DNA from: a virus
Taxonomy: Duplodnaviria; Heunggongvirae; Uroviricota; Caudoviricetes
Reading direction: 5' to 3' (one strand)
Virus record (IMG/VR): IMGVR_UViG_2541047873_000006
Length of the DNA stretch: 37,458 bases
Shown here in pieces: positions 4,583 to 36,462 of the stretch. A program made the translations under genes and the position numbers. A model generated the notes under the pieces. The model was given only the letters and a program-made list of their open reading frames with translations. It ran no database searches and was not told the DNA's origin. How positions within the stretch are numbered: the stretch's first letter is position 1; each line of letters begins with the position of its first letter.

Positions 4583-4673
4583 GAAACCAGAACATGCACA
4601 CACAAAAAAACCGCTTGCCATGCCGCAATCAGTCAGGTTACATTTCCGCTGCACCTCATAAAACGGGTGCCGG

Positions 4674-4897
4674 GATTCTCAACCCGATACAGAGCAAAGC
4701 GCATAACCGCGCCAGCGGTTTTTTTGTGCGTACTGTATTGCCACGTCTTTTTCGCGTCAGAATTATGGCGGGGCGTACGGGGCCGACTTCGGTCGGGCCG
4801 GATTCTTTGCTCTCCGGTGTTGAGAACCCTGTACGTCTCGCCACCCCGAGATTCTCAACTCTGGATGGTGAGCTATTTCTATCACCGAGCAAAGAGG
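4674..4897 (+). other. Structured, repeat-containing leader/intergenic element (candidate cis-regulatory RNA or small RNA)
   Basis: Motif pair TTCTCAAC...GAGCAAAG at about 4676-4699 and 4853-4893, with its exact inverse CTTTGCTC...GTTGAGAA at about 4805-4826; a cUUCGg tetraloop hairpin at about 4779-4800; the third copy overlaps the AAAGAGG ribosome-binding site of the 70-aa ORF. Confidence 0.35.
4704..4727 (+). terminator. Candidate intrinsic terminator or attenuator inside the early operon
   Basis: AACCGC-GCCA-GCGGTT stem-loop followed by a run of seven T. Confidence 0.4.
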
Positions 4898-32898: not shown

Positions 32899-33921
32899 TT
32901 AATACGCATTTAATTTAAATTTGTATTTGCCTTCTATGTAATGGATAAATTCAATTATGCTTTTTTCTATCGCATCTAATATATGAATATATCCATCCCG
33001 ATTTAAGGTCCTATCCAACTCAAAGTGATGAACTATCCCATGTCTATATTGTATGATTTCAGAAATTCGATTCTCAAGAAAATCAACTGATTTTCCAATT
33101 CTTTTTTTCTTATAAAGAATCGCTCTCACATCTATATCCAGCCACTCTTTATATGCTTTGTTTAGGTGGGTTAAGTTTTGAAAAGTGTAATTTCTTGCAA
33201 TAACACTTTCTATTGAAATATTTCCTTTCTCTATCTCAAGCAGAATATCAAAATCAACTTTTTGCTTATACGATGTTCTTTTTGCTATTGCGAAAGGATC
33301 GTACTTTATAAGTATTTGAAAAGCTCTAGAGAAAAAGTATTCAAACATAGCAACCGCAAAAGGTACTAATCCATTATATATAACTCTACTGGGATCCATA
33401 CATTGCATGTAATCAAAGTATTCGGATAAGCCGCCATCTTCCGGTAGGTTTAATTTAATAGAAGGTTCAGGTAAGGCATGTTTAACAGCGGAAATCTCAT
33501 GATGGACATGATTAAATATTGAAGAAATGCCACGACTGATCGGACTACTAGAATCCTTCCATAGAGGAGCGTACCTATTTTTCCCATAATCACCTATAAG
33601 TGTTCCACCAAAAAGACTCCTTGCGCCTTTTAGAACATCATTAAGCATTTTTACATCATGCCAACTAGCGCTATATAAATTACGCACATGCAATGCCCAT
33701 TTATTACCAGATATGTGTAATTCGTCATTTGAAACAGGATATATATCAGCCGAAACTCCATCTGTAGATTTGAAGTCTGTATCATCAAACCAAGAGTAAT
33801 TCAACGTTCCTTGGGGCCATTCCCACAAATGTTTACACCTTTTAAAACCTAAATTTTCAAGGTAATTTTTAAGTTCGTTTCTAGTTGCTTTTTTAGGGTA
33901 CAGCGTTATATCTCTTCCCAT
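32899..33921 (-). CDS. AT-rich cargo gene between D and ogr; 340-aa protein with C-terminal HEPN-like R-x4-H motif (candidate abortive-infection/defence effector)
   Basis: Track ORF; visibly lower GC than the flanking phage genes; opposite strand to D and ogr; motif ...IIQYRHGIVHH... in a predicted helical C-terminal half. Confidence 0.65.
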   Translation of the reverse strand: MGRDITLYPKKATRNELKNYLENLGFKRCKHLWEWPQGTLNYSWFDDTDFKSTDGVSADIYPVSNDELHISGNKWALHVRNLYSASWHDVKMLNDVLKGARSLFGGTLIGDYGKNRYAPLWKDSSSPISRGISSIFNHVHHEISAVKHALPEPSIKLNLPEDGGLSEYFDYMQCMDPSRVIYNGLVPFAVAMFEYFFSRAFQILIKYDPFAIAKRTSYKQKVDFDILLEIEKGNISIESVIARNYTFQNLTHLNKAYKEWLDIDVRAILYKKKRIGKSVDFLENRISEIIQYRHGIVHHFELDRTLNRDGYIHILDAIEKSIIEFIHYIEGKYKFKLNAY

Positions 33922-34112: not shown

Positions 34113-34373
34113 ATGTTCCGTTGTCCGCTTTGTGGCGCATCTGCCCGTATCCGCACAAGTCGTCCGGAAAATGATTCAAACACCGTGCGGCAAAAGTATT
34201 ACCAGTGTAACAATCTGGAATGCGGCGTATGCTTCTCAACACTGGAAGCTTTCCATAAATTCACATCGAAACACGCCTCCGGCGTTCACTCTTCAGAAGG
34301 TATCCCGTGGCATGAGCTACCAGCTTCACACAGGGGAAACAATCAGATGAGTTTGCCTTTACCTCAGAATTAA
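34113..34373 (+). CDS. ogr: Late gene activator Ogr/Delta-family zinc-finger protein, 86 aa
   Basis: MFRCPLCGASARIRTSR...YYQCNNLECGVCF matches the recalled P2 Ogr (MFHCPLCQHAAHARTSR...YHQCQNVNCSATF) with the same Cys spacing; GGGAGG Shine-Dalgarno. Confidence 0.8.
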   Translation: MFRCPLCGASARIRTSRPENDSNTVRQKYYQCNNLECGVCFSTLEAFHKFTSKHASGVHSSEGIPWHELPASHRGNNQMSLPLPQN

Positions 34374-34563
34374 CAAGCAGAATTGCCGGAGTAACAAAAA
34401 AGCGATAGATTACGCGCGGGTGCCTTTCGGCTGATGGTCGGAGGGAATACCCGAAGGCCAGATGTGGAAAGGCCCCGGAAAACACTTTTGTTTAACCGAG
34501 GCCCTAACCGTCTACCCTAAGCAAGTGAAAGGTTAGCGCCTCTCCGGAAAAGGAGCAAGTGCT

Positions 34564-34704
34564 ATGTCGCAAAAATCGCTTACAGCCATCACGTTCTGCG
34601 TGACGGTAATCCTCATCATCTGGATGTTGCACGGTTCGCTGTGCGAAATACGGATGAGTTTCTGGGGAGCGGAGTTTGCGGCGTTCTTACAGTGTAAGCA
34701 GTAA
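34564..34704 (+). CDS. Hok/Gef-family type I toxin (46 aa)
   Basis: Not in the ORF track (under 60 aa); ATG 34564 with AAGGAG 8 nt upstream; N-terminal transmembrane helix then ...SLCEIR...EFAAFLQCKQ, matching the Hok family signature (LCEIR...EVAAF). Confidence 0.6.
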   Translation: MSQKSLTAITFCVTVILIIWMLHGSLCEIRMSFWGAEFAAFLQCKQ

Positions 34705-34713
34705 GGAAACCGC

Positions 34714-34735
34714 GACGGGGGAGTAATCCCCCGTC
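34714..34735 (+). other. Perfect stem-loop 3' of the hok-like gene
   Basis: GACGGGGGA-GTAA-TCCCCCGTC; its right arm shares the 11-mer TAATCCCCCGT with window positions 2-12. Confidence 0.5.
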
Positions 34736-34964
34736 AATCGGTTGCCAGGGTAAGGTCGATAAGGCACCCTATCTCACGGCTCTAAATGCAAAAATTCCAT
34801 GAAACTGTGGGATTTTTGCATCACTACTGATACAGATCTGCCCTTCTATATGTCTCACTCTATACCAGCTAATCAATTGACACTTATCAATAAAAAAAAT
34901 CTGATAAAATCAAAATGTTTTGTAACAAATATCAACTCGTATTGATCCAAAGGAGGCGGATTAC

Positions 34965-35297
34965 ATGGCATTAATCAAATGTCCTGAATGCCAGAAAGAG
35001 GTGAGCGATTCAGCATTGTATTGCCCTGCTTGCGGTAAACAAATAAAAAAACTTAAGCGTTCATTTTTTGGAAAGCTCATTAAGTGGATATTTATATTAT
35101 TTAATATTTTTATGATCTATACGCTTTTAGTTGGACTGGGAGGCACTAGTGAAATAATAAATAATGCTACATCCGATGCCGAAAAAGCCGGTGCAGTTAT
35201 TGGTACAGGCTTAGGTTTAATTACCATTGGAAGTTTATGGGTTATTGGCGATATCATTATCGGAATTTTAGTATTTCTTACTAAACCAAAAGGATAA
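34965..35297 (+). CDS. Zinc-ribbon membrane protein (110 aa), AT-rich cargo
   Basis: Track ORF with AAAGGAGG Shine-Dalgarno; CPEC-x12-CPAC ribbon then two hydrophobic helices. Confidence 0.6.
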   Translation: MALIKCPECQKEVSDSALYCPACGKQIKKLKRSFFGKLIKWIFILFNIFMIYTLLVGLGGTSEIINNATSDAEKAGAVIGTGLGLITIGSLWVIGDIIIGILVFLTKPKG

Positions 35298-35301
35298 CAA
35301 A

Positions 35302-36195
35302 ATGAAAAATATAATTTTTTCTATAGGTGCATCATTTATATCAATTAGTGTACTGCCTGTTCACGCAGCAACTGAACATAATAACTTCAATGCAGTACTC
35401 CAGTGCCGAGCAATAGAAAATAATAAAGACAGACTTTCTTGTTACGATAAGTCAATACAACCGACTCGAACGAAAGTTGCTGAAAAATTCGAAAGCAGAG
35501 ATCAATGCCCTGATGAGAAAGATGATGACAGACGTTTATCTTGTTATGATCGTTTTTTTTCTCCAACATTTACTCCATCTGTAAACTCAAAATCTAAAAC
35601 GGAAAAGCCAGTAACAACAGAGGCTCAGCAACCAAATCTTTCTGAGATATCTAAATGCCGAGCAGAAAATGATAAAGAAGCCAGACTAAACTGCTACGAT
35701 AAACTATTCCCACAGGATAAAGCTGTTCAAGCTGAATCAAAATTAGAGAAAGCCACAGATGTAGGAAAATGGCACACATCCATTACTACATCGCCAATTG
35801 ATGATTCGAAAAATGTAATTTTATCGTTAGAAAGTGATGATTATATCAGAACTCCATTTGGAGAAGCGGTTACTCCCACTCTGTTTATAGCTTGCCGAGA
35901 AAAGAAAACCGAAGTATTTCTTAGTTGGGATGTATATTTAGGCCTTGAACAAACCAGCATGCTTTATCGTCTTGATAAACAGAAAGCAGTTGAGCGAAAC
36001 TGGCTAGTATCTACAGATACAAAGGCTGTTTTTTATAAAGGTAATGACATTGATTTCATCCGAAAACTAGCCAACTCAAACAAAATGTATACAAAAATAA
36101 CTCCTTATAATGAGAGCCCTGTAAGTGCAACTTTCAATTTAAACGGCCTGTCAAACGCGCTAAAACCACTTCAAGCTGCTTGTAACTGGAAATAG
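35302..36195 (+). CDS. Secreted protein with three Cys-pair repeats (297 aa), AT-rich cargo
   Basis: Track ORF; signal-peptide-like N-terminus; three repeats of C-x(7-9)-RL-x-CYD-[KR]; starts 5 nt after the previous stop. Confidence 0.65.
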   Translation: MKNIIFSIGASFISISVLPVHAATEHNNFNAVLQCRAIENNKDRLSCYDKSIQPTRTKVAEKFESRDQCPDEKDDDRRLSCYDRFFSPTFTPSVNSKSKTEKPVTTEAQQPNLSEISKCRAENDKEARLNCYDKLFPQDKAVQAESKLEKATDVGKWHTSITTSPIDDSKNVILSLESDDYIRTPFGEAVTPTLFIACREKKTEVFLSWDVYLGLEQTSMLYRLDKQKAVERNWLVSTDTKAVFYKGNDIDFIRKLANSNKMYTKITPYNESPVSATFNLNGLSNALKPLQAACNWK

Positions 36196-36297: not shown

Positions 36298-36462
36298 TGC
36301 TGATATAAATCCTTTTATATCAATAAATTAAATCATCATTTTTTTCATCAACAAGGATTTTCACGTTTGTGTTACCTGTATGAGACGAGAGTTAACCGGA
36401 CAAGTGTGCCATAATCTCGCGGCCAGGCATACTTGCGAAGATTTCAGGTATAAGGATACGTA

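Follow-up and report, generated by a model that had tools for sequence, protein, structure and literature searches.

A putative hok/sok-type module with no recognizable mok leader frame in a P2-like prophage of Escherichia coli

Hok toxin loci receive automatic annotation, and their enrichment in prophages is established; the hok locus considered here is such an ordinary, already annotated feature, whose sole unusual trait is the apparent lack of a mok leader frame. It raises the question of how much of the R1 hok/sok paradigm is essential, for which a cluster seemingly free of mok offers a natural test. The window, that is, the whole stretch of DNA analyzed (37,458 nucleotides; IMG/VR record IMGVR_UViG_2541047873_000006), is E. 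coli DNA, and a preliminary description, made from its letters alone, had placed a Hok/Gef-type toxin locus near the right prophage end. What the present analysis adds is the regulatory anatomy of the cluster with its coordinates, for which no earlier description was found in the literature examined, together with the delimitation of the unit, placed by conserved sequence at 34383–34772, and the apparent absence of mok throughout the cluster.

The toxin is encoded by the only Hok-like ORF in the whole window:

34564–34704, plus strand: hok coding sequence, 46 amino acids, with one transmembrane helix, Cys27 and Cys44

Its product is MSQKSLTAITFCVTVILIIWMLHGSLCEIRMSFWGAEFAAFLQCKQ, and the 46-codon ORF with a Shine–Dalgarno sequence and a transmembrane helix described beforehand was recovered in full, with AAGGAG at 34550–34555, 8 nt 5′ of the hok ATG, and a hydrophobic stretch at residues 6–22 (Kyte–Doolittle mean of 2.58). 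The earlier assignment to the Hok/Gef family is upheld by a Pfam HOK_GEF (PF01848) match spanning residues 7–44 (30.1 bits, E 3.7e-7; curated gathering score of 22 bits) and by RefSeq, which calls the identical sequence a ‘Hok/Gef family protein’; the peptide also matches PHROG 251 (82.8 bits). Given these Pfam and PHROG matches, the Rfam leader match described below, and conservation in hundreds of genomes and phages, the Hok call is not due to chance. In 24 relatives, L26-C27-E28 and C44 vary little or not at all, and these positions match the conserved ones (the L-C-E motif and the second, C-terminal Cys/Tyr) reported in 10.1101/2025.08.07.668861. The 46-codon frame is kept in all 43 sequences of an alignment of non-redundant copies (67–97% identical) from E. 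coli, Salmonella, Citrobacter, Klebsiella, and IMG/VR contigs. An N-terminally extended Hok was considered and rejected, the longer database entries all being C-terminal read-throughs that begin with MSQKSL. At the nucleotide level, the start region of hok (34564–34578, AUGUCGCAAAAAUCG) pairs with a coding segment at 34668–34682 (CGGAGUUUGCGGCG), 98.7% paired with no two-sided changes, and this helix may be the cause of the near-invariant nucleotides in the MSQKS and GAEFAAF codons.

The family assignment and the prophage association were already known from annotation and from a published catalogue. Identical DNA is annotated as WP_000078920.1, under the RefSeq name given above, in many E. coli genomes, where it adjoins an ogr/Delta zinc-finger gene. 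The catalogue (Escalera-Maurer et al., 2026 bioRxiv preprint, 10.1101/2025.08.07.668861) contains 32,532 hok loci, enriched in prophages, and lists cluster 72 as high-abundance, with two peptides in its Table S2; the window Hok differs from one of them, 72_1621, by a single residue (V15 for A15), and the other, 72_1589, is identical to the copy found in Stx phages. In the same work, 42 of 45 Hok homologues were toxic on overexpression, and the three non-toxic ones that it names include neither of the cluster-72 peptides; 72_1621, the one-residue variant of the window Hok, is thereby reported to be toxic on arabinose induction. That study deals with coding sequences only, and Mok, Sok, and the mRNA elements were explicitly left out. 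The locus is, in this respect, of a known kind: automatically annotated, with its peptide cluster catalogued and toxicity-tested.

The cluster is widely spread over E. coli, P2-like and Stx phages, and Salmonella. Of 5426 complete genomes, 1186 cover at least 80% of the 501-bp stretch 34300–34800, and many match it with 100% identity, so that roughly one complete E. coli genome in five has the hok locus. At 94–100% identity, the module (34380 to about 34775) also occurs in several P2-like (Peduoviridae) phages, namely P88, in which the homology stops at 34775, Chuche, P884B11, PhiR44_2, and Citrobacter Shae_phiSM, and about 170 Stx-converting lambdoid phages carry an 82% identical copy over 34397–34769, a separate 46-aa gene beside lom. 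A profile search with the Hok alignment returned only seven genome loci, including evident contaminants (contigs labeled Planococcaceae, Vagococcus, and Xanthomonas).

Some Salmonella copies depart from the single intact module. Two contigs, L013 (1501–1641 and 1991–2131) and L014 (1501–1641 and 1995–2135), carry two tandem hok modules, about 490 nt apart and mutually diverged. In L015 and L016 (about 1310–1500), near phage tail-fibre genes, the promoter and tac are replaced by unrelated sequence and the ORF and fbi are kept, an example of a decaying hok copy. In L017 and L018 (1501–1641), a member of the cluster with 72% identity has a TraI-type relaxase gene about 750 nt away, which places the cluster on conjugative elements as well.

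The locus had been regarded as prophage-linked cargo near the right end, and its position bears this out, since the P2-like phages P88 and PhiR44_2 have it too and since it lies within the bounds that the 20-bp att repeat sets to the prophage. The relevant features of the setting are:

36342–36361: attR, a 20-bp direct repeat, whose second copy in strain DEC5A falls in the int–pdxB interval, about 200 bp to the left of window position 1
34965–36195, plus strand: two further cargo genes, one encoding a zinc-ribbon membrane protein of 110 aa and the other a 297-aa product that has a VasI / type VI secretion TagO-like domain
32899–33921, minus strand: 340-aa ORF between the gpD tail gene and ogr

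Homology to K-12 and other element-free genomes starts at 36342, and the insertion site lies between pdxB and flk; the window begins at the integrase stop codon and hence contains no attL. The hok module is thus inside the att-bounded prophage, between ogr and attR and about 1.6 kb from the latter, and the gene order of PhiR44_2 is the same as that of the window (D, ogr, hok, zinc-ribbon gene, and TagO-like gene), which identifies the three genes lying rightward of ogr as phage cargo. The 297-aa protein matches Pfam VasI with 89.6 bits, and its gene is frameshifted in strain DEC5A. The slot of the 340-aa ORF holds no annotated gene in P88 or PhiR44_2, in the latter of which D is directly followed by ogr, and this points to a variable cargo site; the ORF is possibly a defence gene, with a sub-threshold match to HEPN RiboL-PSP (22.5 bits vs. 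a cutoff of 28.4) and no PHROG or PADLOC match. PADLOC gave no match for Hok or for any of the three neighboring cargo genes. In the early region of the same prophage, isrK (4651–4725, 62.8 bits) and C4 antisense RNA (4761–4848, 78.5 bits), both above the Rfam gathering score, lie side by side on the plus strand (4651–4848).

The extent of the unit follows from its putative promoter and from the conserved block of the cluster, which runs from GGGTGCC (34418) to AAGGCACCC (34761–34769) and has a −10 of the TAGATT type and a −35 of the TTG type ahead of it:

34383–34411, plus strand: putative hok promoter, −35 TTGCCG (34383–34388), 17-nt spacer, −10 TAGATT (34406–34411)
34418–34772, plus strand: putative full-length hok mRNA of about 355 nt, with the 5′ end set by R1 analogy and the 3′ end just past fbi
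34786–34821, plus strand: AT-rich 15-bp hairpin 3′ of fbi, a possible weak terminator

Among relatives, the −10 hexamer reads TAGATT, TAAATT, or TAGAAT, always 6–7 nt 5′ of the conserved GGGTGCC. A consensus promoter scan of 34250–34950 flagged neither this promoter nor that of the Sok-like RNA, both being weak by consensus, so that promoter placement relies on homology and conservation. The Rfam model RF01794 ‘sok’ (hok leader) matches the sense strand over its full length at 34418–34577 (E 1.2e-10), with 51.9 bits, below the gathering score of 59. Two earlier estimates need revision: the leader, given as 180 nt, measures 146 nt (34418–34563), and the end of the unit, set at 34740, is moved to about 34772, as the fold-back element lies beyond that position. 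Directly after fbi (34778–34830), the window departs from the P88 and Salmonella copies, whose terminator (CCCGCAG..CTGCGGG; CCCGCAGCGTAAAAACTGCGGG and a T-run) is replaced in the window by the hairpin at 34786–34821.

Within these limits, the predicted RNA elements of the module are:

34418–34432, plus strand: tac element at the 5′ end, GGGUGCCUUUCGGCU, pairing with fbi in the full-length RNA or with ucb in the truncated RNA
34466–34478, plus strand: ucb / anti-SD box, GGAAAGGCCCCGG, with GAGGCC as its partner in the full-length RNA and tac as its partner once the RNA is truncated
34498–34542, plus strand: Sok-target hairpin, GAGGC (34498–34502) with GCCUC (34538–34542), 97.7% paired
34540–34555, plus strand: anti-SD CUCUCC (34540–34545) and hok Shine–Dalgarno AAGGAG, a local hairpin in the full-length fold
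34714–34735, plus strand: 3′ stem-loop GACGGGGGA-GUAA-UCCCCCGUC, nine perfect pairs with a GUAA (GNRA) loop
34738–34752, plus strand: second fold-back segment, pairing with the loop of the Sok-target region (34513–34528) in the full-length RNA
34754–34769, plus strand: fbi (fold-back inhibitory) element, GGUCGAUAAGGCACCC, with its core at 34761–34769

Alignment with hok/sok loci, proposed beforehand as the way to locate the fold-back elements, placed tac, fbi, and ucb at these coordinates together with the predicted folds, and both alternative pairings covary. The full-length RNA has a minimum free energy of −160.1 kcal/mol (z −7.4) with its 5′ and 3′ ends paired; on the 43 relatives, 92.2% of the cells in this structure are paired, vs. 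about 40% with the partners slid, and 30 pairs have two-sided changes (164 such cells vs. 56.6 in shuffles). The tac/fbi pairing, 15 bp in the minimum free energy fold and found independently by RNAalifold, is 95.3% paired, with four pairs showing two-sided changes, and the Stx-phage homology ends exactly at the end of fbi, 34769. When the RNA is truncated (34418–34740), tac pairs instead with ucb (GGAAAGGCCCC) and GAGGC pairs with GCCUC; the tac/ucb helix is paired in 97% of cells, and the truncated leader structure as a whole in 94.1% vs. 29–56% in slid controls. Columns 10–11 of tac change together with columns 370–371 of fbi in ten sequences and with columns 52–53 of ucb in eight, and such coupled covariation of tac with both partners is reportedly, after work by Gultyaev et al. 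in 1997, characteristic of hok mRNAs.

The remaining helices differ in what they contribute. The perfect 9-bp hairpin noted earlier 3′ of the ORF is present at 34714–34735 and is the best-supported helix, 99.5% paired with two-sided changes in five of nine pairs; by analogy with the last stem-loop in R1 (PMC9841398), its probable role is to shield the truncated mRNA at the 3′ end. The second fold-back helix, also found independently by RNAalifold, is 83% paired, with two-sided changes in six of 13 pairs. The tac–fbi core, the GAGGC/GCCUC pairing, and the Shine–Dalgarno hairpin (91.8% paired, no two-sided changes) are invariant or vary on one side only and consequently say little either way.

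The leader had been expected to hold both a mok frame and an antisense Sok-like RNA. The second part of this expectation stands as a putative assignment, the antisense unit being placeable by position-for-position homology with R1, with both RNA ends set by analogy to R1 Sok; no mok frame, the first part, was found.

34530–34558, minus strand: putative Sok-like promoter, −35 TTGCTC (reverse complement of 34553–34558), 17-nt spacer, −10 TAACCT (reverse complement of 34530–34535)
34466–34522, minus strand: putative Sok-like RNA of about 55–57 nt, with an 18-nt 5′ tail, a hairpin GGGCCUCGG..CCGGGGCCU, and a UUUCC end

The Sok-like −35 overlaps the hok Shine–Dalgarno sequence, and the two hexamers match TTGCGC/TATCCT of the R1-type locus in position and in their 17-nt spacing; three relatives have TATCCT as well. 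The predicted hairpin of the antisense RNA is stable and terminator-like (z of about −3 to −3.8).

As regards mok, no ATG, GTG, or TTG ORF reads into the hok Shine–Dalgarno sequence in the window, except for a non-conserved 14-codon GTG ORF at −5, and in a leader-ORF scan of 15 relatives none consistently reaches it; the same scan detects mok in the R1-type locus (at −57) and, in hokA, an ORF in frame with the toxin. Two candidates were considered and rejected: the 28-aa ORF at 34434–34520 has no Shine–Dalgarno sequence, stops 44 nt before hok, and is without its ATG in Salmonella, Klebsiella, and Citrobacter, and the 14-codon frame from GTG 34559 is missing in 12 of 15 loci. A TAG at 34534–34536, in the hok frame and conserved in the 43-copy alignment, closes any upstream extension, and the Sok-target hairpin holds, without variation in the cluster, the SD-like GAGG found ahead of mok in R1, with no start codon after it in the window. 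From the lack of a conserved leader ORF, the conserved in-frame TAG, and the missing start codon, a mok frame appears to be absent from the window and its 43 relatives, and hok must then be initiated directly.

Direct initiation suggests that the fold itself may gate the hok Shine–Dalgarno sequence, GCCUCUCC pairing alternately with that sequence or with GAGGC. In the truncated fold, the CUCUCC segment is partly taken by the GAGGC/GCCUC pairing and the Shine–Dalgarno sequence is looser; its ensemble probability of being unpaired in the window is 0.002 in the full-length form and 0.14 in the truncated one. The medians over the 43 sequences are 0.003 and 0.057, respectively, and 0.002 with the Sok-complementary stretch blocked, and the direction of the change holds in 40–41 of the 43 sequences (truncated above full-length in 40), absolute values being low. 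The same ensemble calculation on the R1-type control did not reproduce the known R1 switch. Owing to these low values and to the failure of the control, direct gating is put forward as a hypothesis that the modeling weakly suggests. On this basis, it is tentatively proposed, at somewhat less than an even chance, that cluster 72 is a naturally mok-less branch of hok/sok in which the tac/fbi/ucb switch gates the Shine–Dalgarno sequence directly and the second fold-back helix hides the Sok target. If so, the leader-ORF coupling that is held to be integral to hok regulation would be dispensable; a literature search for mok-less hok loci returned nothing relevant, and a prior description may exist elsewhere.

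Taken as a whole, the locus is, with good confidence, a complete hok/sok-type type I toxin–antitoxin module, carried as accessory cargo by a P2-like prophage and controlled by an RNA switch of the following kind. The full-length mRNA (34418 to about 34772) would be locked, with its ends paired, the Sok-target loop held by the 3′ UTR, and the hok Shine–Dalgarno sequence held by CUCUCC; slow 3′ trimming to the GC hairpin at 34714–34735 would then remove fbi and the second fold-back segment, whereupon tac would take ucb, GAGGC would pair with GCCUC, and the Shine–Dalgarno sequence would loosen. The truncated mRNA would be bound by the short-lived antisense RNA (about 55 nt, 34522–34466, minus strand) and would then be cleaved or have its Shine–Dalgarno sequence closed again, and once the antisense supply ends, Hok would be made and the inner membrane damaged. 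Candidate roles for such a module are prophage retention, abortive infection, or help in lysis as reported for hokW-sokW.

The last of these roles leads to a narrower alternative, in which the module serves phage release at induction, as hokW-sokW of the Stx2 prophage Sp5 does, and neither addiction nor phage exclusion. The copies beside lom in Stx-converting phages would fit such a function, and in Sp5, deletion of hokW-sokW led to a later growth arrest after mitomycin C and to half the phage yield (PMC8621323); however, HokW is a different Hok, of 51 aa and beginning with MKQQKAM, none of the 141 retrieved loci contains its leader, and the sequence does not discriminate among the candidate roles, so that this alternative is a credible but unlikely one.

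A second alternative accepts the module as structurally intact and takes it to be silent, transcribed but never activated, like the chromosomal hokA/B/C loci tested by Pedersen and Gerdes, the loss of mok then being the loss of a translational activator, with Hok essentially never made. The absent mok frame and the conserved in-frame TAG would be expected under this explanation, as would the low predicted accessibility of the Shine–Dalgarno sequence even in the truncated form, and there are precedents, since chromosomal hok loci, as reported in 10.1101/2025.08.07.668861, gave neither post-segregational killing nor a rifampicin response, loci with all elements being among those cited there as unable to mediate such killing. 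Nevertheless, the ORF, both cysteines, and the RNA architecture are conserved, the latter with compensatory changes, across E. coli, Salmonella, Citrobacter, Klebsiella, and unrelated phage types, which makes a dead element unlikely, and real decay has another appearance, that of the longer database entries and the 5′-truncated Salmonella copy, whereas all 43 aligned copies keep the frame; silence is accordingly regarded as rather improbable.

A classical mok-dependent mechanism, acting through a non-canonical start or a missed frame, could draw on the invariant GAGG and on the remark of the authors of 10.1101/2025.08.07.668861 that identifying Mok is not trivial, but it is very improbable, as no start-like triplet lies 5–10 nt 3′ of GAGG in the window, the addition of the near-cognate starts CTG, ATT, ATC, and ATA still leaves four of the 15 loci without an ORF reaching the Shine–Dalgarno sequence, with those of the others differing in frame and position, and the window has UAC at the position of the GUG in the Rfam consensus leader. 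That GUG is presumably the start of mokC.

The complete, prophage-borne hok/sok-type module with its RNA switch, which remains the preferred reading, can finally be compared with the systems already described. The hokW-sokW locus of Sp5 (Takada et al. 2021, PMC8621323) is likewise a prophage-borne module of hok/sok type; identity with it was rejected on the differences in toxin and leader given above, and the hokW leader, as read from the published primers, starts with GGGTGCTTGAGGCTATC / GGGTGCTTGAGGCTATCTGCC, unlike that of the window. The database label ‘MokW-like host killing’ has been given to both hokW-sokW and the window cluster; for the latter it is a misleading misnomer and could carry the hokW-sokW phenotype over to a different gene. 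Among named toxins, HokA of the E. coli chromosome is the closest, with 42.5% identity and the best NCBIfam match, and both cysteines are encoded in each; identity with HokA was rejected as well, the NCBIfam equivalog NF007290 scoring 35.8 bits vs. a cutoff of 89. HokA has 50 residues vs. 46 in the window, and the hokA leader differs, with an in-frame upstream ORF annotated as mokA.

For R1 hok/sok (parB), the comparison was made through an R1-type IncFII locus (L021). In that locus (294–509), the mok ATG lies 57 nt 5′ of hok and in the same frame, predicting a Mok–Hok fusion reading frame; in the R1 numbering of PMC9841398, the offset is 58 nt, out of frame with hok. The two Hok toxins, of 46 aa in the window and 52 aa in R1, share 39% identity over 31 residues, including SLCEIR, the leaders measure 146 nt and 167 nt (R1-type locus), and the carriers are a prophage and a plasmid, respectively. 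The window differs from R1 in an additional covarying helix that joins the target loop to the 3′ UTR and in the lack of mok, the translation of which is required for hok translation in R1 (PMC9841398). Both have the tac/fbi end-pairing, the ucb box, the GAGGC...GCCUC target hairpin, and the GC-rich 3′ stem-loop, and the putative antisense −35 of the window, like that of R1, lies over the hok Shine–Dalgarno sequence with the −10 at a distance of 17 nt (TATCCT in R1 and TAACCT in the window). In summary, as far as alignment and predicted folds can tell, the prophage locus agrees with R1 hok/sok in every RNA element that could be tested, with the exception of mok.
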